Assembly (NCBI RefSeq): GCF_035487495.1
Contig: NZ_DATHMC010000181.1
Reading direction: 5' to 3' (one strand)
Length of the DNA stretch: 64,000 nt
Origin: Undibacterium sp.
GTDB lineage: Bacteria; Pseudomonadota; Gammaproteobacteria; Burkholderiales; Burkholderiaceae_D
Shown here: positions 37,417-46,015 of the stretch, piece after piece
How the letters are laid out: each line of letters starts with the position of its first letter
Numbering within the stretch: position 1 is the stretch's first letter
The notes under the pieces: model-generated
What the model was told of the DNA's origin: nothing
Database searches by the model: none
What the model saw: only the letters and a program-made list of their open reading frames with translations
Program-made: the position numbers and the translations under genes

Positions 37417-38472
37417 TCAAAAGAATTCGGCGGTATCGTTGGAGCGCTCTGCGTGCAGGTCGCCGCTTTCCACCAGGCTGTCGTAATAACAGGTGCGGTT
37501 GCGGCCATTGCTCTTGGCAAAATACAGCGCCTGGTCCGCGCGTCCCATGATCGCCACCGCCGGTTCGAACGGGTCTATGCGCGCAAAGCCGACGCTGACC
37601 GTGACTTTCCCGACTTGCGGGAAATGGTGCTGCTCTACATTGACGCGGAAACGATCGAAGATATGCTGGGCATCTTCCTGCGTTGTCGAGCGCAGCAGTA
37701 TCACGAATTCTTCGCCGCCGAAACGGAACAAGCGGTCAGTCGGGCGAAAAGAGGAACGCAACAGGTTGGCAATCAGGATCAGCACCTCGTCGCCGTACAG
37801 GTGGCCGAACTGGTCGTTCACCCGCTTGAAGTGGTCTATATCCAGCACGGCCAGCCAGTGTTGCTTTTCCGGTTCGTGATGGCGCCGTTCGGCGCTGCTG
37901 CCCTCGTCATTTTCGCCTTCGCCATTGTTTTGCTGCGAAGTGGCGCGCAATACCTTGGAAAAACTATCGTCGAAAGTTTTTCGATTCAAGAGGCCGGTCA
38001 GTGAATCGCGTTCGCTGTAATCCAGCAGATTCTGGAAATTGCGGTAAACGATCAGTATGCCCTCCATCACCTCCATGGTATTTTGCGTATAGGAAGCGGG
38101 ATTGGTGATTTCCAGGCAAGTGCTGACTTTGTCGTTGATCCAGATGGGCAGCCAGAGTATGCGCTTGCCATCCTCGGTGAGATCTTCGATCAGATTGGAA
38201 TGCTGCGCCAGGCCTTGCTCCAGCGCAGGATATTGGCTAACCGCTTCGCCAGTTTGCAGTGCAGCAAGGTGCTCGTCAACAGTGACAACTTTGCCGTTCT
38301 TGATCGTAATCTGCGGCTGCACAAATATTTGTTTTCCGACGGCAACAACATCCAGTGCGCGCGCATACTCGGCATGAGTCAGCTCGCCTAATGCAGAAAT
38401 CACAGAAATATTGAGGAGATCGTGATCCCGATGACCGGTGATTTCCACAAGGTGCTTGATGATTGATTCCAT
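37417..38472 (-). CDS. Diguanylate cyclase (GGEEF) with a GAF-like N-terminus
   Basis: DSLTGLLNR, DIDHFK, RPTD I-site with FGGEEF, and ADQALY motifs. Confidence 0.93.
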   Translation of the reverse strand: MESIIKHLVEITGHRDHDLLNISVISALGELTHAEYARALDVVAVGKQIFVQPQITIKNGKVVTVDEHLAALQTGEAVSQYPALEQGLAQHSNLIEDLTEDGKRILWLPIWINDKVSTCLEITNPASYTQNTMEVMEGILIVYRNFQNLLDYSERDSLTGLLNRKTFDDSFSKVLRATSQQNNGEGENDEGSSAERRHHEPEKQHWLAVLDIDHFKRVNDQFGHLYGDEVLILIANLLRSSFRPTDRLFRFGGEEFVILLRSTTQEDAQHIFDRFRVNVEQHHFPQVGKVTVSVGFARIDPFEPAVAIMGRADQALYFAKSNGRNRTCYYDSLVESGDLHAERSNDTAEFF

Positions 38473-38608
38473 ACACTCGATCTAGGGCCTGTTAACAATC
38501 AAATTGCAATCAAATTGGGCGTGCGGCCGGGCTGCGATATGGCTTGGCATTCAGCTATTAAATTCTTTGCATCACATTATATGCGAAACATATTGCCCCG
38601 ACCCATTA

Positions 38609-38622
38609 TTGATGTTCATCAA
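38609..38622. promoter_or_regulatory. FNR/Anr consensus site
   Basis: TTGATGTTCATCAA, a perfect TTGAT-N4-ATCAA in a divergent promoter region. Confidence 0.7.
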
Positions 38623-38754
38623 CTATTGTAAAACCACACTCCCTATTGGAAGATTTCCATGGGGCATTATTTCCATGGCCTGCAAAAAACGGCGGCCCGG
38701 TAGTATAGTGACGTGTTACATCGTTTCCTGGCGATAAGCTCGCTCTGCAGAAGC

Positions 38755-38961: not shown

Positions 38962-39567
38962 ATGAATAAATCTCATCTACCGCAAGCTGCTGTTGCCGCG
39001 CTGCTCGGCGCCATGTTCGCAGCCAATGCATGCGCTAGCCTGACCGTGCAGGTGATCGACAGTGCAGGCCAGCCGGTGGCGGACGCGGTCGTCTACGCAG
39101 AGGGCTCGGCGCCATTGCTGAAATCCCCGCCGCAAGTGGAGATAGAACAGAAAGACAAGAAATTCATCCCTTTGGTGAGCGTGATCCAGACCGGCACGGC
39201 CATCAATTTCCCGAACAACGACACGGTCAGGCATCACGCCTACTCCTTCTCGACACCCAAGCCCTTCGAACTCAAATTGTATGCAGGCACGCCCGCCAAG
39301 CCGATTATTTTTGACAAAGCGGGAACCGTGGTGGTCGGCTGCAATATCCACGACCAGATGATCGCCTATATACAAATTGTCGATACCCCTTTTTTCGCCA
39401 AAACGGATGCCAGCGGCAAGGCCAGGATAAGCAACATCGTGGCCGGCAAATACGCGCTGAAAACCTGGCACTATAAACAGGCTGCGGGCGCTCCCGTCGA
39501 CGAGCAGGCCATCAACTATAAAGACGATGCCACGATTACTGTTAAACTGAGCTATAAAGCCAGCTAG
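38962..39567 (+). CDS. Exported cupredoxin-fold protein ('methylamine utilization protein' family)
   Basis: Signal peptide; QKDKKFIP, FPNNDTVRHHAYSFS and GCNIHDQM (His/Cys/His/Met type-1 Cu set). Confidence 0.88.
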   Translation: MNKSHLPQAAVAALLGAMFAANACASLTVQVIDSAGQPVADAVVYAEGSAPLLKSPPQVEIEQKDKKFIPLVSVIQTGTAINFPNNDTVRHHAYSFSTPKPFELKLYAGTPAKPIIFDKAGTVVVGCNIHDQMIAYIQIVDTPFFAKTDASGKARISNIVAGKYALKTWHYKQAAGAPVDEQAINYKDDATITVKLSYKAS

Positions 39568-39678
39568 GTGCGGTCAACAAGCCGGCGTCCCTCAACCCGA
39601 CAATAAAAATGCCTGCTCTTTTGCTTAATCACTACCAACAGACCGGCCGCGACAGGCGGTTATCGCCAAGGGTGCCAC

Positions 39679-42060
39679 ATGCGCTTCCATAGCCTGGAAA
39701 GCCGGGTCGTGGCCCTGTTCATTGTCTTAATGCTGGCTGTGCAGCTGGCGAGTTTTTTTACGATCCGCCACGCAATCCAGGCCAATGCCCGCACTTCGAT
39801 CCAGGCCGACTTGAAAGTCGGCGAGCGGCAATTCGGCAATTTGCTGGAGCAAAACGCCCAAAGACTGATCTTCGGCGCACAGGTGCTGGCGTCCGATTAT
39901 GGTTTTCGCACTGCAGCCAGCAGCAATGACCGTAAAACCATAGAATCTGCGCTGTCCAACCATGGAGAACGCATAGGTGCAACCTTGACCATGCTGATCG
40001 GCCTGGACAAGTCAATTACCGCCTCCACCAATGCCGCGCTCGCGGCCAGCCTGCAGCAATCGATCGCGCGGATGATAGCGCAGGCGGAGCAAAGCGGCGG
40101 CACCGCATCCAGCACCTCCATCGTCGAAAGCCATCCTTACCAACTGGTCATCGTGCCGCTGAAAGTACCGGCCACGGTCACCATAGGCTGGGTCGTGATG
40201 GCCATTCCCATCGACCAGAAGATCGTCGCCGACCTGCGCGAACTGTCTTCGATGCAGGTGTCACTGCTGACAAATACAAATGGCGGCCCATGGGCATCCA
40301 ACGTCTCCACGCTGGATCCCGCGGATGCCGATGAATTGACCAGGCAGTTGCCGACGACGCTGGACAAAGCCGTGTTCATACAGGACCTGGAAATAGCCGG
40401 CAACAGCTATAGCGCCCGCGTGCTGCAGCTGGCGCAAAACGCCGGCGAAAACCAGACTACAGTGCTGATTTTGCAAAGGTCGATCAGCGAAGCGATCGCC
40501 CCGTATGAGAACCTGAAACTGACCCTGCTGATACTGACCGGTGTCGGCGTATTGGTGGCGATCATCCTCAGCGTTTTTTCCGCCAGACGCATCACCGGCC
40601 CCATGCGCCAGCTGGCTGAAACCGCCAGGAAACTGGGGGCGGGCGACTACTCCGCCAGCATCGACGTCAAGGGCCAGGATGAGATAGGCGAGCTGGCGCG
40701 TACCTTTATCAGCATGCGCGACGGCATCGCCACCCGCGAGAAAGAGATACGCCATCTGGCTTACTGGGACACCCTGACCAATTTGCCGAACCGGGCCCAA
40801 TTCGCGAATATGCTGCGCGACGCGATCAGGCAGGCGGAATCCAGGGAAGAATCCTGCTATGTATTGATGATGGACCTGGACCGCTTCAAGCACGTCAATG
40901 ACGTGATGGGACATAGTTTTGGCGATCTGTTGCTAACCCAAGTCGCGGTGCGGCTTAGCGCCGAGTTGGGCCAGGGAGCAACCAAGCCTGCGCGCCTGGG
41001 CGGCGATGAGTTCGCGATACTGCTGCCCAACTCCAGCATGGCCGCCGCGCAAGAACTGGCAACCCGCATCCTGCAATCGCTGGAGAAGCCTATCTCGATC
41101 GAGGACCAGACCGTGGACCTCGGTGCGGGCATAGGTATCGCCGGCTTTCCGCAGCATGCAAAGAATGCCGAGACCCTGCTGAGCCATGCAGAAGTGGCGA
41201 TGTACGCGGCCAAGCAAAGGAACAGCGGCGCGGTGACCTATATACCCGAAATCGACAAATCCAGCCAGCAAAGCCTGTCGCTGCTGAGCGAACTCAGGGC
41301 CGCGCTGGATCATGATGCGTTCCGGCTATATGTGCAGCCCAAGGTTGCGCTGGACTCCGGCAAGGTCATTGCGGTAGAAGCCCTGGTACGCTGGGTGCAC
41401 CCAGAGCGCGGCTTTATCTTTCCGGACCAGTTCATCCCGTTTGCCGAACAGACCGGGTTTATCCGCCTGTTGACCCGCTGGGTGCTGGAGCAGGCGGCAC
41501 AGATGTGCAGCGCATGGATAGCCAGGGGCCTGCACCTGAAAATGTCGGTCAACCTGTCCACCCGCGATTTGCTGGACCAGGACCTGCCGAATAAATTTGA
41601 CGAAATCCTGAAACGCCACAATGTGACGCCCGCTTCGTTTTGCCTGGAGATCACCGAGAGCGCCATCATGGATGACCCCATTCGCGCCCAGCAAACCCTG
41701 GAACGCCTGCACGCGATGGGGGTCGATCTGTCGATTGACGACTTCGGCACCGGCTATTCATCGCTGGCCTACCTGAAGAGCCTGCCGGTCGACGAGTTGA
41801 AGATCGACAAATCCTTCGTGCTGAAAATGGAACAAGACCTGGATGATGCCAAGATCGTCCGGTCCACCATCGACCTGGGCCACAACATGGGCTTGCGGGT
41901 CGTGGCAGAAGGCGTGGAAAACCAGGATGTGATGCTGCTGTTGAAAGAAATGGGCTGCGACCAGGCCCAGGGTTATTACATCAGCAAACCCATGCCGGCA
42001 GAACAATTGCCGGAGTGGGTGATGAAGTGGGTGCCGCCGGAATTTTCGGCGGCGGCTTAG
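39679..42060 (+). CDS. Membrane Cache-like/HAMP/GGDEF/EAL protein
   Basis: Two TM helices with a periplasmic domain, HAMP (DEIGELA), RLGGDEF without RxxD, and EALVRW/DDFGTGYSS/EGVE. Confidence 0.93.
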   Translation: MRFHSLESRVVALFIVLMLAVQLASFFTIRHAIQANARTSIQADLKVGERQFGNLLEQNAQRLIFGAQVLASDYGFRTAASSNDRKTIESALSNHGERIGATLTMLIGLDKSITASTNAALAASLQQSIARMIAQAEQSGGTASSTSIVESHPYQLVIVPLKVPATVTIGWVVMAIPIDQKIVADLRELSSMQVSLLTNTNGGPWASNVSTLDPADADELTRQLPTTLDKAVFIQDLEIAGNSYSARVLQLAQNAGENQTTVLILQRSISEAIAPYENLKLTLLILTGVGVLVAIILSVFSARRITGPMRQLAETARKLGAGDYSASIDVKGQDEIGELARTFISMRDGIATREKEIRHLAYWDTLTNLPNRAQFANMLRDAIRQAESREESCYVLMMDLDRFKHVNDVMGHSFGDLLLTQVAVRLSAELGQGATKPARLGGDEFAILLPNSSMAAAQELATRILQSLEKPISIEDQTVDLGAGIGIAGFPQHAKNAETLLSHAEVAMYAAKQRNSGAVTYIPEIDKSSQQSLSLLSELRAALDHDAFRLYVQPKVALDSGKVIAVEALVRWVHPERGFIFPDQFIPFAEQTGFIRLLTRWVLEQAAQMCSAWIARGLHLKMSVNLSTRDLLDQDLPNKFDEILKRHNVTPASFCLEITESAIMDDPIRAQQTLERLHAMGVDLSIDDFGTGYSSLAYLKSLPVDELKIDKSFVLKMEQDLDDAKIVRSTIDLGHNMGLRVVAEGVENQDVMLLLKEMGCDQAQGYYISKPMPAEQLPEWVMKWVPPEFSAAA

Positions 42061-42132
42061 ACCAAAATGCGGGAAGAACGCTAGCCACTCCCCGTTCGCG
42101 CCCAAGGAGCGCAATTTGTCCGGCGGCAGCCT

Positions 42133-43863
42133 TCACACCAGGTGCAACTGATTCGACTTGCGATCCCGCTTGCGCTTGTACATGCGGCCGTCGGCGATCT
42201 TGATCAAACGGACGTAGTCGTCGCCGTCGTCCGGGAAACTGGCCCAGCCTATGGACACGCCGACGCTGACGATGGCGCCCTCCAGCGCGATCGGCTCTTC
42301 GACCAGCGCACAGATTTTTTCCACCGTGCTGCTGATGTCGATCGAACCCTTGACCTCTTTTAACAGCAGGACGAATTCGTCGCCGCCATAGCGCGCCACC
42401 AGGTCGGTATCCCGGATTGCGGCTTGCAGGCGCGCGGCAATAATCACCAATACCTTGTCGCCGGCATCGTGTCCATACGTGTCATTGATGAACTTGAAGC
42501 GATCCAGGTCCACGAACAACAGCGTGAACGCCTCCGCCTCCCTGGCATTCAGCGCGGCCTGCTTGCGCAGATAGTTAATCTGGGCAAACAGCGACTCCCG
42601 ATTGGCAACCTGGGTCAGCTTATCGAAGCGCAGCTTGTTCTCCATCTCGATAAAAGTCTGGGCTAGCGTGCCGATTTCATCGCCACGTTGTATGTCCAGC
42701 GCGGGCAAGGGTTCTCCATTGCCGAATTTTTCCGCCGCGCCGGTCAGCTTGCGGATATCCCTGACAACTCTTTCGACCATGGCCACGCCTATGGTCAATG
42801 CAATAATGATGCAGGCAATCGCAATCAGTGCGCTCTGCATAAAGCCCTGATTGATACCGCTCATGAAATCGGAGCGGGGCACGGCAACTACCGTGAGCCA
42901 GCTCAGGCCCTGCCTGTTTCCCAGCGACGATACCGCAACATCGACGGTGCCCACGCTCAACTCCAGTTGCCTGGTGGACGGAACATCCGGATTTTTTTGC
43001 AATATCTGCCTTTGCCACTCAAAGCTTTTTTTATAGGTTTCGCTGATCAGCGAAGTTTTCATTTCCGTTGCCATCATATGGACCGGCATGCCGTCCACCA
43101 TCTTCACCGGCGACTCCTGGCCGGACGTGGCAACAATATGACCTTCTGCATCCAGGATATAAGCGACGCTGTTCTTGCTGATTTCCAGGGTTTTCAAAAA
43201 GTCGGATAGCACTTTCAGCGTGACGTCGGTGGCGACTACCCCGGCCAGGCTGTGATCCTTCCGGAACACGGCCTTGGCCAGCGTAATGGTCGGATAGGCC
43301 GCGGTGAAATTATTATAGATCGCCGACCAGACCGGCTTGTCGGTCACCGAAGCCACCCGATACCAGGGTCGTTTGCGCGGATCGTAGGGTTCGGTGCGCA
43401 GCAATTTAGTCCTGTCGCCAGGGCTGGCCACGTTGTATACCTCGCGCAATCCATCCCCCGGCTCGTGCCAGAACAATTCGACAAAGTCATTCTTGATCCG
43501 GTACACCCCGACGAAACGCCCATCCTCCCCGCCGTAATACACGTAATTATTCACGTTCATGAACAGGCCGCTGGCGGCCCACAGATTGATTTCCAGCGTG
43601 CGCATGTCGTCGGAAAAAACCTGTTCCCTGGGGACAGTCCTGGGATCAGGCGAAATGGATTCCAGCGCGATCAATGCGCCTTCCAGATGCCGTTCCGTCG
43701 CATTGCTGATGCGATTCACCATGTCGGTCAGCACCCGCTGGGTCAGGGTCTGCACCGCATCGGTGCCGGCCTTCATCGACACCCAGGCGATTGCTACCGA
43801 TACCCCTATCACCAGCACGGTAACGGGGATCAGTAATTCACGGCGCAATGAAGTCCGCTTCAT
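42133..43863 (-). CDS. dCache-HAMP diguanylate cyclase
   Basis: YDPRKRPWY Cache motif, HAMP DEIGTLA, and RDTD I-site with YGGDEF. Confidence 0.92.
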   Translation of the reverse strand: MKRTSLRRELLIPVTVLVIGVSVAIAWVSMKAGTDAVQTLTQRVLTDMVNRISNATERHLEGALIALESISPDPRTVPREQVFSDDMRTLEINLWAASGLFMNVNNYVYYGGEDGRFVGVYRIKNDFVELFWHEPGDGLREVYNVASPGDRTKLLRTEPYDPRKRPWYRVASVTDKPVWSAIYNNFTAAYPTITLAKAVFRKDHSLAGVVATDVTLKVLSDFLKTLEISKNSVAYILDAEGHIVATSGQESPVKMVDGMPVHMMATEMKTSLISETYKKSFEWQRQILQKNPDVPSTRQLELSVGTVDVAVSSLGNRQGLSWLTVVAVPRSDFMSGINQGFMQSALIAIACIIIALTIGVAMVERVVRDIRKLTGAAEKFGNGEPLPALDIQRGDEIGTLAQTFIEMENKLRFDKLTQVANRESLFAQINYLRKQAALNAREAEAFTLLFVDLDRFKFINDTYGHDAGDKVLVIIAARLQAAIRDTDLVARYGGDEFVLLLKEVKGSIDISSTVEKICALVEEPIALEGAIVSVGVSIGWASFPDDGDDYVRLIKIADGRMYKRKRDRKSNQLHLV

Positions 43864-44456
43864 GCTATTGCACTTCCCGGGCGCGGCTCTGCCGTCGGCA
43901 GGGCTGCGACGTGGATTTTAAGTCGGAAATAATGCAGAGCAACATGCCCTCGTCCCCTTTTTCTTGTGTAAGACTGTGATGAAATCAACCTGAACTCGGC
44001 ACCCTGCCAGTCGCCGGCCAAGGCCGCGCGGTCAGCAAGGCGAACAGGTATTCCGGACTACAACGTCGTTTTCCTGCGGAACTACACCGACTTGCAAAAG
44101 AATGGCTTGCTCGCCAGAGTGTGCATGGCAAAGCAACAACACCAGGGCATCTTCACAACAAGCTTTAAATGTAATGGATTGCGGGCAAAGAATACTAAGG
44201 CTTTCTTTGGCTAAGTTGAACTTACGCAACAATATTTGACATAAAGAAATTACTTATTAGCAACTTCATCTTGATTTTTTTTGTTAACGTGTATTCTTGA
44301 TTGTAGCCGTGGAGAGCGGTATTTGCAGTGCTTGTTTGGTTGCCTGATTTGAAAAGTGCCTGCCCTTGAAAAACGCCTGTTTAAGCGTCGTATCGGCCAA
44401 GAGAAATTGCTTCTGCCAACCCATGCTATACGAGTTATTTTGCCCCACGGATAAAA

Positions 44457-45362
44457 ATGCCCTATCGAACATCGCTGCTTGCTGCAGCGCTGGCGCTGCT
44501 GAGCTTTGGCCTCAGCCCGCCGGCTTTCGCAGAGACTCCCTCCATGCCTGACATGGGTAAATTGACGGCGACCGGCGGCGTCAGCCAACTGGAAGGCGCG
44601 GGCGGCGGCGGCCTCACTCCGTGGGCACTGATCACCGGCTATGGAACATCTGACAGCTATGGCGGCAACGCCCACTACACCCAGGTCGGCACCCAGGACT
44701 ACGCGTTGAAAACCTATGGAGTGGCGCTGGGCATTGCCGATCGCGTCGAGATATCGCTGGCGCAACAGGAATTCAGCGGCAGCAAGGCTCCGCTGAATCA
44801 ACTCGACATCAGGCAGGATATCCTCGGCGTCAAGCTCAAGCTGGCTGGCGATGCGGTGTTTGACCAGGACAGGCTGATGCCGCAAATTGCGGCCGGCGCC
44901 ATGTTCAAGCGCAATAACGGCATAGGCGGCCTGGCGGCTTTGGGCGTAACCAAGGTCACGCAATTGGGCGCCGCCGATGATCACGGCATCGACTATTACA
45001 TCGCCGCCACCAAACTCTACCTGGACCGCAGCCTGCTGCTGAACGGCACGGTGCGCATGACCAAGGCCAACCAGATGGGCCTGCTCGGCTTCGGCGGCGA
45101 CCGGCACGACCGCTACCGGCCCATGCTGGAAGGGTCGGCGGCCTACCTGTTCAATCGCAAACTGGTCGCCGGCGTGGAATACCGGATGAAACCGCGCAAC
45201 CTCGGCGTGGATAATGAAAAGGACTATGCCGACGTATTCCTGGCCTACTTCCCCACCAAGCATGTATCGATCACGGCCGCCTATGCGACCTTGGGCGATA
45301 TCACCATCTTCAACCCGGCTACCCAGCGCGGCTGGTATCTGTCTGTGCAAGTCGGCAATTAA
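44457..45362 (+). CDS. DUF3034 family predicted outer-membrane beta-barrel
   Basis: Signal peptide; GKLTATGGVSQLEGAGGGGLTPWALITGYG; alternating beta-strands ending GWYLSVQ. Confidence 0.88.
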   Translation: MPYRTSLLAAALALLSFGLSPPAFAETPSMPDMGKLTATGGVSQLEGAGGGGLTPWALITGYGTSDSYGGNAHYTQVGTQDYALKTYGVALGIADRVEISLAQQEFSGSKAPLNQLDIRQDILGVKLKLAGDAVFDQDRLMPQIAAGAMFKRNNGIGGLAALGVTKVTQLGAADDHGIDYYIAATKLYLDRSLLLNGTVRMTKANQMGLLGFGGDRHDRYRPMLEGSAAYLFNRKLVAGVEYRMKPRNLGVDNEKDYADVFLAYFPTKHVSITAAYATLGDITIFNPATQRGWYLSVQVGN

Positions 45363-45379
45363 GCCACAGGCGCCTCCCC

Positions 45380-46015
45380 ATGAAACCATCTCTCAGGCAA
45401 TCCCACCGCATGCTGACACGCGCAGCCACCCTGGCGCTGTCGTTCGGTCTGCTATGCACGGCGCCGGTGCCCGGCTTGGCGCAGGCAAGCACCGGCCAGC
45501 TGTACCAGGCCCTCGGCGCCGAGCAAGGCATCCATCACATCGTCGACGACCTGCTGGTGCTGGTCAAGCGGGACGCGCGGATCAAGGAACAGTTCCGGGA
45601 AACCAATATGAAGAACCTGGCAAAATTGCTGAAAGAGCAGTTCTGCCAGCTGAGCGGCGGCCCTTGCACCTATACCGGCGACGACATGAAATTGGTGCAC
45701 GCGCAAATGGGCGTGACCGGGCTGCAGTTCAACGCGCTGGTGGAAGACCTGCAAAGTGCGATGGACAACAATAATATCCCGTCCTCGACGCAAAACAAGT
45801 TGCTGGCGCTGCTGGCGCCTATGCAGCGCGATATCGTGGGGCCCGCGATGCCGCAAAATAGCGGCGCAAATTCGGGCAAAAAGCCAGGCGCAGCGGCCGC
45901 TCTATCCCAATCCGGACGCTGGCGCCGGCATAAAATTCAGGTGCGCCGGCTCCCCAATTCGGCGCAACATGGTTTATGCTTGCGCCCATCTTCTTTTCAC
46001 TCGCGAAAAACATAG
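45380..46015 (+). CDS. Exported group I truncated hemoglobin
   Basis: LYQALG..GI..IVDD, GGPCTYTG, proximal His in KLVH, and FNALVEDL; N-terminal signal peptide; last ~55 aa look non-homologous. Confidence 0.9.
   Translation: MKPSLRQSHRMLTRAATLALSFGLLCTAPVPGLAQASTGQLYQALGAEQGIHHIVDDLLVLVKRDARIKEQFRETNMKNLAKLLKEQFCQLSGGPCTYTGDDMKLVHAQMGVTGLQFNALVEDLQSAMDNNNIPSSTQNKLLALLAPMQRDIVGPAMPQNSGANSGKKPGAAAALSQSGRWRRHKIQVRRLPNSAQHGLCLRPSSFHSRKT

Follow-up and report, generated by a model that had tools for sequence, protein, structure and literature searches.

An envelope gene set of two co-inherited pairs, a blue-copper protein with a dCache_3-HAMP sensor and a DUF3034 barrel with an exported truncated haemoglobin, as a candidate trans-envelope signalling module

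A 64,000-nucleotide stretch of bacterial DNA (contig NZ_DATHMC010000181.1), hereafter the window, carries genes for four envelope proteins, namely an exported cupredoxin-like protein, an inner-membrane sensor enzyme predicted to act on cyclic di-GMP (c-di-GMP), a DUF3034 outer-membrane barrel and an exported globin. Best database matches place the host in Undibacterium, family Oxalobacteraceae. The locus consists of two pairs: unit A, in which the cupredoxin accompanies a dCache_3-HAMP sensor, and unit B, in which the DUF3034 barrel accompanies the globin (Table 1). These pairs are co-inherited, and we give about an even chance to the view that they form a trans-envelope signalling module reporting an extracytoplasmic redox or gas cue. 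It is poorly understood how redox-active molecules are detected by Gram-negative bacteria in the periplasm or at the outer membrane, before such molecules enter the cytoplasm, and to our knowledge the signal is known for only a minority of GGDEF/EAL proteins with periplasmic domains. The module offers this large sensor family a testable partner and a cofactor chemistry. Literature searches turned up no work on the function of DUF3034, this cupredoxin family or the gene set, in agreement with an earlier reading of the DNA letters (the original prediction), which had described the set as lacking an assigned function. The four protein identities given there, an exported cupredoxin with a full type-1 copper set, an inner-membrane c-di-GMP enzyme with a periplasmic sensor domain encoded immediately downstream, an outer-membrane barrel and an exported globin encoded 17 bp after it, all held up in the analyses described below.

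Co-occurrence was assessed in a class-wide sample of 400 genomes, roughly one per genus, and in a named-locus sample of 80 loci from alpha-, beta- and gammaproteobacteria (single loci are cited by L numbers). Neighbourhood genes were detected by hidden Markov model searches on stop-to-stop frames; open reading frame (ORF) calling often lost small globin ORFs to spurious opposite-strand ORFs. DUF3034 was present in 22 of the 400 genomes, 13 of which carry the clade found in the window (clade 1), and all 13 also encode a full-length cupredoxin homologue, compared with 28 of the 400 genomes overall (Fisher p = 4e-17). All four genes are contiguous in 10 of these 13 genomes, with start and stop codons touching or overlapping. 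Among the named loci, the globin adjoins DUF3034 in 77/80, the cupredoxin and the sensor lie within ~2 kb of DUF3034 in 28/80, and the arrangement of the pairs differs between loci, with A ahead of B, B ahead of A, or the two divergent. The cupredoxin gene is usually immediately 5' of the transducer gene, some loci being reversed or having a small barrel-like gene in between. Where unit B was found without an adjacent unit A, a cupredoxin was located elsewhere in 21 of 24 genomes, and in all 16 genomes fetched this unlinked cupredoxin lay near a same-strand dCache_3-HAMP-GGDEF-EAL gene, directly adjacent in 15. Furthermore, 15 of the 28 sampled cupredoxin genomes have no DUF3034, and the sensor adjoins the cupredoxin in 18 of 20 such loci. 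The presence of unit B thus implies that of unit A, but not the reverse. The carriers include Oxalobacteraceae, Caballeronia, Lysobacterales, Caulobacterales and others, and greedy ORF clustering of the neighbourhoods gave no fifth family conserved across lineages.

A chance or purely syntenic adjacency of four unrelated genes, which deserves almost no credence, is refuted by these co-occurrence data. The set is interrupted in the window, so that a single operon is impossible there, as such adjacency would have it; however, the genes co-occur across alpha-, beta- and gammaproteobacterial families in variable order and orientation, the units share a genome even when unlinked, and globin and barrel are fused in some lineages. 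A functional link among the four genes is highly probable. The recurrence of the four families, which the original prediction had stated, proved to be far beyond chance. Its single four-gene system stands as a genuine and widely conserved set, but one composed of two pairs, of which unit A also occurs without barrel and globin.

On the evidence of its sequence and its structural model, the first protein of unit A is an exported type-1 (blue) copper cupredoxin with predicted copper binding. It bears a Sec signal peptide with cleavage between …ANACA and SL, and its copper ligands, H91…C127-x2-H130-x2-M133, are all four invariant in 27 homologues with identity down to 22%. The Pfam Cupredoxin_1 score of the window protein (16.8 bits) falls under the 27-bit cut-off. 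Its AlphaFold2 (AF2) model (pLDDT 85.9) matched amicyanin 1id2, pseudoazurin, plastocyanin and Cupredoxin_1 4hcf in Foldseek at a TMt of ~0.7, and the family profile matched the C-terminal cupredoxin of NirK (6hbe, E = 4.5e-9) with the C-x2-H-x2-M motif aligned, as well as further solved type-1 copper domains, among them the Nitrosopumilus purple cupredoxin 5fc9 and amicyanin. Both hallmarks of a type-1 copper protein, the Greek-key fold and the His…Cys-xn-His-xn-Met ligand pattern, are present. The protein has a two-domain build in which the cupredoxin is inserted in a CarboxypepD_reg/Ig-like sandwich. Databases name it 'methylamine utilization protein' or 'plastocyanin'; the former had been regarded as a mere label, and indeed no mau genes lie within the window. 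The methylamine dehydrogenase light chain (PF02975) gave no match in the genome, but control genomes gave no match either. The partners of the cupredoxin vary between the sensor alone, the barrel and globin alone, and all three. The sensor is its sole partner in 15 sampled genomes; barrel and globin without a sensor accompany it in a second set of Undibacterium and in L035, L047, L061 and L086. Based on these varying partnerships, the cupredoxin is proposed to act as the hub of the gene set.

The second protein of unit A is a transducer whose Pfam scores reach 76.7 bits for dCache_3, 58.6 for HAMP, 142 for GGDEF and 253.9 for EAL. In the window protein, the catalytic motifs GGDEF, EAL (EALVR) and DDFGTG are intact, and the GGDEF domain is without an RxxD I-site. 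Among the 42 family members that end in GGDEF-EAL, the EAL motif is canonical in 36 and GGDEF is intact in 29, while the E-x-L and DDFGTG-like signatures are kept in nearly all, one member having a degenerate second motif. From its intact GGDEF-EAL pair, the transducer is predicted to make and/or degrade c-di-GMP. Sequence searches for the periplasmic sensor domain returned no solved structure, the matches being to HAMP only.

Six outputs were found on the cupredoxin-adjacent sensor module: GGDEF-EAL, PAS-GGDEF-EAL, a class III nucleotide cyclase (Guanylate_cyc), HisKA-HATPase, a Ser/Thr kinase (Pkinase) and none at all. The last case is a 375-aa Lysobacterales protein, encoded between cupredoxin and barrel, that ends directly after HAMP. 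Pairwise BLAST of this HAMP-only protein against the window sensor gave no significant match, and profile-profile comparison was needed to detect its full-length homology to transducer residues 1-350 (hhalign 99.6%, E = 4.6e-24). The conserved element is the envelope input, that is, the sensor module, and not its output. With a fixed cupredoxin neighbour and exchanged outputs, the module therefore behaves like a sensory input module. The earlier proposal that the periplasmic domain switches c-di-GMP output is retained as regards the conserved transducer domain, but c-di-GMP is one of six outputs. In three loci (L026:10481-12860, L027, L028) the sensor gene is split or decayed; one complete genome has a 463-aa sensor-HAMP-partial GGDEF ORF and, after it, a separate EAL ORF of 294 aa, and L028 retains fragments only. 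This decay suggests that the output is occasionally lost while the exported parts are kept.

Control of a GGDEF-EAL transducer by a periplasmic partner has been described for NspS-MbaA (PMC8079147) and PruR-DcpA (PMC11194511). As in these systems, which respond to polyamine in Vibrio cholerae and to pterin in Agrobacterium, respectively, a small exported protein is encoded here beside a two-TM GGDEF-EAL enzyme. In both of them the partner sets the balance of cyclase and phosphodiesterase from the periplasm, and free exchange of the output with a fixed extracytoplasmic partner is the pattern of such co-receptor systems. In contrast to both, the partner here is a type-1 copper protein and not a solute-binding or SUOX-fold ligand binder, so the solute-binding protein characteristic of NspS-MbaA is replaced by a cupredoxin; moreover, the module combines a dCache_3 sensor with an attached barrel-globin pair, and kinases and cyclases are also among its outputs. 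That the cupredoxin is the periplasmic partner of the sensor appears somewhat better than evenly probable.

A different use of the same pair, in which dCache_3 would read the apo or holo state of the cupredoxin as a measure of periplasmic copper status, the barrels would be copper or small-solute channels and the globin a lineage-specific accessory, is improbable. It would accommodate the occurrence of unit A without globin, and also seven DUF3034-less loci (L125, L126, L128, L130, L132, L141, L159) in which the cupredoxin and sensor genes flank or adjoin a gene for another, barrel-like protein of ~295 aa; on this account, the recurrent partner of the cupredoxin would therefore be a barrel and not a haem protein. 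However, the complete and invariant type-1 site binds copper tightly and is suited to electron transfer, not to reversible sensing, no recurring cop, cus or pco genes lie nearby, and the tight coupling of globin and barrel, fusion included, would be left unexplained. The ~295-aa protein itself (for example L141:8025-8933, minus strand) is unannotated; it combines a signal peptide with a C-terminal aromatic residue, and its OMP_b-brl matches are only sub-threshold. It may represent another family of outer-membrane barrels, unrelated to the first, that partners the cupredoxin; no relationship to DUF3034 was detectable by hhalign (probability 0.2%).

In unit B, the DUF3034 protein is, according to its structural model, an outer-membrane beta-barrel of 12 strands. 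It scores 330.2 bits against DUF3034 (PF11231), above the gathering score and over profile positions 1-255 of 255, and it carries the signal peptide MPYRTSLLAAALALLSFGLSPPAFA, cleaved before E. The most conserved stretch is the Gly-rich mature N-terminus, EGAGGGGxxPWA, which is left unplaced in the AF2 model (pLDDT 75.8). Foldseek matched this model to KdgM (TMt 0.76-0.79), NanC (0.72), FapF and OmpG, and in Pfam no match of DUF3034 to other outer-membrane families or to autotransporters was obtained, even at E up to 10. A tree of DUF3034 contains two clades with 100/99 support, the window barrel belonging to the globin-associated one. As regards the C-terminus, the first-set barrels of Undibacterium (window 45336-45362; L161, L162, L045) end in …QVGN or …IAQ, that of the window in GN; a C-terminal Phe is usual in most relatives, and second-set copies and other genera end in GF.

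Globin and DUF3034 are encoded as one ORF in Duganella, Pseudoduganella, Rugamonas and Janthinobacterium, and 11 of the 80 named loci are fused. For instance, the Duganella hordei protein (L064:9584-10888; 434 aa) has Bac_globin at residues 30-154 and DUF3034 at residues 172-431. Another fusion was found in Pseudoduganella (L073), and the globin-DUF3034 architecture recurs in no fewer than 77 independently sourced protein clusters (90% identity). In the fused proteins, ~12 residues separate the globin from the conserved segment at the N-terminus of the barrel. Such fused ORFs are Rosetta-stone evidence and therefore argue for physical association; the anchoring role suggested earlier for the barrel most likely applies to the globin. 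In the public NCBI annotation, the L064 fusion appears only as a 285-aa DUF3034 protein starting at an internal Met, which would be without a signal peptide. The full frame has both the signal peptide and the globin, and the fusion is therefore under-annotated in some records.

The same fused proteins could be taken for an autotransporter- or Slam-like device, in which the 12-stranded barrel exports or threads the globin to the cell surface to meet an external ligand or haem. They, and they alone, have type Va topology (signal peptide, N-terminal passenger, short linker and 12-stranded C-terminal barrel), many unfused globins are lipoproteins, and the unplaced Gly-rich segment of the barrel could sit in the pore. 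Nevertheless, we consider such surface display very improbable: the barrel shows no similarity in sequence to those of autotransporters or Slam, folded haem proteins make poor passengers, and the conserved Cys pair of the globin as well as the periplasmic cupredoxin partner suit a periplasmic location.

The globin matches Bac_globin with E = 4e-14 (53.1 bits against a cut-off of 21) and aligns gaplessly with HbN of M. tuberculosis, which places His107 at the proximal position (F8) and Phe72 at CD1. The pocket residues of the window protein are Leu59 (B10), Leu80 (E7), Leu84 (E11) and Leu120 (G8), and a Cys89/Cys96 pair is present. In 95 DUF3034-linked homologues, F8 is always His (95/95) and CD1 is Phe in 94, B10 is I/L/V/M in 89, E11 is Leu in 86 and E7 is L/I/V/F in nearly all; the Cys pair at 89 and 96 is found in 93. 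A Sec signal or, in at least nine lineages, a lipobox was present in every homologue inspected whose upstream sequence was readable. Judged by these residues, the protein is an exported group-N truncated haemoglobin of the TrHbN-2 type, with predicted haem binding and assumed haem loading in the periplasm. The TrHbN-2 signature consists of hydrophobic residues at B10, E7, E11 and G8 (PMC11904497). SbHbN of Shewanella benthica (PDB 8tls, 7tt9, 8ugz), the sole characterised member, shares these residues and a Cys at E16 with the globin described here (E = 1.5e-12) and is unable to bind O2 reversibly (PMC11904497). SbHbN comprises 116 aa as crystallised, and its description is silent on export or gene context (PMC11904497), whereas the present globins have signal peptides or lipoboxes, carry Phe at CD1 and possess another conserved Cys, seven residues beyond E16. 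The apolar distal pocket, of the TrHbN-2 type, disfavours O2 as a ligand, and with it the O2 sensing assigned to the globin in the original prediction. By analogy with H-NOX, NO or CO would fit such a pocket.

Identity, export, cofactor ligands, co-occurrence, globin-barrel fusion and output swapping are observations of this analysis, around which the following chain is proposed. The DUF3034 barrel would hold the TrHbN-2 haem globin at the inner face of the outer membrane, where a small redox-active molecule in the envelope would react with the haem, NO, sulfide, peroxide or CO being likelier than O2. An electron would then be exchanged between the haem and the copper centre, and the copper protein would bind the dCache_3 domain differently depending on whether it is in the Cu(I) or the Cu(II) form, or possibly on whether it is apo or holo. 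Finally, HAMP would switch the cytoplasmic output, which is GGDEF-EAL here. The contacts other than that between globin and barrel, the direction of signalling and the ligand are what we infer in this scheme, and the full chain, including the transfer from haem to copper, is possible, with an even chance as its upper bound. Held more tentatively, and rather doubtful, is a specific form of it in which the blue-copper protein is a diffusible redox co-receptor for dCache_3 sensors with c-di-GMP, cAMP/cGMP, His-kinase and Ser/Thr-kinase outputs, fed electrons by an outer-membrane-tethered haemoglobin that meets an environmental reductant or gas. In a sub-reading of this co-receptor scheme, the cue would be sulfide or reactive sulfur, since the sister DUF3034 clade sits in SQR/DsrE/TusA clusters under a sigma-54 PAS activator. 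In this globin-less clade (L036-L038, L040-L042), six of nine loci place DUF3034 next to a sigma-54 PAS activator, an SQR-like Pyr_redox_2 flavoprotein, a DsrE-like protein and TusA. Such a sulfide/sulfur-oxidation setting may hint at what DUF3034 barrels pass, and it makes sulfide a dark horse among the ligands.

Several points weigh against a signalling module of this kind. Evidence of contact is confined to the globin-barrel fusion. Type-1 copper proteins are classical electron carriers, and we know of none that acts as a receptor partner. Roughly half of the unit-A genomes in the sample have no unit B, and globin and barrel are therefore not required for the sensor. In the window, an opposite-strand gene divides the two units, which are transcribed separately, and the FNR box, the sole hint of O2 regulation, is not conserved. 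In addition, the co-occurrence statistics ignore phylogenetic non-independence in a sample of about one genome per genus.

Alternatively, the set could be a periplasmic redox enzyme system and not a sensor, a possibility that is unlikely but carries more weight than any other alternative considered here. Catalysis, for instance of NO dioxygenation or reduction, peroxide removal or sulfide oxidation, would fall to the globin, with the cupredoxin giving it electrons or taking them up and the barrel passing substrate or product, while the transducer would merely tune expression or behaviour in line with this activity. Consistent with such a system are the sensorless barrel-globin-cupredoxin sets listed above, the electron-carrying function of cupredoxins, of which the closest solved sequences are the electron-donor domains of NirK and amicyanin, and the sulfide-oxidation clusters (SQR-like flavoprotein, DsrE, TusA) of the sister DUF3034 clade. 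Furthermore, SbHbN reacts with peroxide and forms haem d (PMC11904497), and in cable bacteria O2 reduction has been proposed as a role of periplasmic truncated-globin domains (PMC11976967). On the other hand, the cupredoxin adjoins a dCache_3-HAMP gene in nearly all loci with enough flank (the 18/20 and 16/16 reported above), the freely swapped outputs beside it are typical of a co-receptor and not of a metabolic electron carrier, and no conserved reductase or quinol-linked partner was found in the neighbourhoods compared.

Comparison with other envelope and haem-based systems helps to delimit the proposed signalling module. YfiBNR (TpbB) of Pseudomonas aeruginosa and E. coli comprises YfiB, an OmpA-like lipoprotein, and YfiR, a disulfide-dependent repressor, and has no metal or haem cofactors. 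The module resembles it in spanning three compartments, with an outer-membrane part, a redox-sensitive periplasmic intermediary and an inner-membrane HAMP-GGDEF enzyme, but no component is homologous: in Pfam and NCBIfam, none of the four proteins belongs to the YfiR-type repressor or YfiB lipoprotein families, and only the GGDEF part resembles DgcN/YfiN. H-NOX and NosP haem sensors are cytoplasmic, have H-NOX or FIST folds and partner c-di-GMP enzymes or kinases. They share with the present set a stand-alone haem protein with an apolar pocket beside a signalling enzyme whose type depends on the species, whereas here an exported globin is tethered to an outer-membrane barrel and a copper protein stands between globin and transducer. 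A Pfam scan of the module proteins gave no match to the H-NOX domain, the haem protein being a globin. In Cyc2 of Acidithiobacillus, covalent haem c (CxxCH) is joined to a larger barrel that feeds respiration and works with rusticyanin. The fusion of a haem domain N-terminally to an outer-membrane barrel, together with a periplasmic cupredoxin, recalls this Cyc2-rusticyanin arrangement; in contrast, no CxxCH is visible in the globin sequences read, the barrel is 12-stranded and the cupredoxin is paired with a sensor.

What is new here is the decomposition into two pairs, their co-occurrence when unlinked, the six-way swapping of outputs, the scale of globin-barrel fusion, the candidate alternative barrel family and the two-clade structure of DUF3034. 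These provide a first functional context for DUF3034 and for the ~1500-member TrHbN-2 globin clade, and a signalling role is proposed for type-1 copper proteins. As five kinds of output enzyme share this input, a result obtained in one organism would transfer widely. If true, the form of the chain with a diffusible copper co-receptor would be the first signalling pathway to relay an electron, and not a ligand or a phosphoryl group, across the periplasm.

The layout of the locus is given in Table 1. The cupredoxin gene is separated by 111 bp from the downstream sensor enzyme gene, and the gap between barrel and globin is exactly 17 nt. DUF3034 and the cupredoxin are each present in one copy in the host genome. 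Gene order is identical in the two closest relatives, U. terreum and a metagenome-assembled genome (MAG), both flanking GGDEF genes included. The dCache_1-HAMP-GGDEF cyclase gene on the opposite strand, which was correctly seen from the outset to split the set, separates units A and B, which must therefore be at least two transcripts. Among the loci compared, it occupies this position only in Undibacterium and is a genus-level insertion between the units, outside the conserved module. The divergent GGDEF gene upstream is likewise a neighbour conserved within Undibacterium and outside the module elsewhere.

Table 1. Genes and sites of the locus, with positions in the window
Feature	Position	Strand	Remarks
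GGDEF protein, cytoplasmic, divergent	37417-38472	-	351 aa; RxxD and GGEEF intact
Perfect FNR/CRP-type palindrome	38609-38622	.	divergent intergenic region
Cupredoxin-like protein, exported	38962-39567	+	201 aa
Transducer TM1-dCache_3-TM2-HAMP-GGDEF-EAL, inner membrane	39679-42060	+	793 aa
dCache_1-HAMP-GGDEF diguanylate cyclase	42133-43863	-	576 aa; RxxD I-site present
DUF3034 outer-membrane barrel (by model)	44457-45362	+	301 aa
Bac_globin protein with signal peptide	45380-46015	+	211-aa ORF
Globin proper	45380-45838	+	predicted exported group-N truncated haemoglobin, TrHbN-2-like
Aberrant tail of globin ORF, 58 codons	45839-46015	+	traverses conserved ettA leader
ettA	46019 onward	+	next gene after globin ORF

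The perfect FNR box noted upstream of the set, TTGATGTTCATCAA, is present and is the sole perfect one in the window, but it is not a conserved part of the module. It lies ~340 bp upstream of the cupredoxin ATG, whereas the divergent GGDEF gene starts only 137 bp away, and it falls inside a minus-strand promoter-like site, TTTACA-16-AATAAT (38575-38632), with a perfect minus-strand TATAAT 28 bp beyond. In a scan of 100 loci, those bearing the module showed no such box ahead of either the cupredoxin or the DUF3034 gene, and two near-matches upstream of DUF3034 were both in loci without the cupredoxin-sensor pair. As a conserved regulator of the module the box was therefore rejected, given its lack of conservation and its position nearer to the divergent GGDEF gene, which it probably serves instead.

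The globin ORF of the window exceeds in length the globins of U. terreum (156 aa) and the close MAG (165 aa). Compared with these genomes, a 1-nt indel shifts their TAG out of frame, and because of this difference the window ORF runs on through the ettA leader to 211 aa, ending 3 nt before the ettA ATG. The 1-nt difference could be a real mutation or an assembly error.

Other Undibacterium genomes carry more than one set. In six of them (L045, L046, L048, L049, L052, L068), a second, sensorless DUF3034-globin-cupredoxin set lies directly downstream of the first, and L051 has a second barrel-globin pair with no second cupredoxin within the fetched locus. In some two-set Undibacterium a gene for a TPR protein precedes the first barrel; the genome of the window carries one set only.

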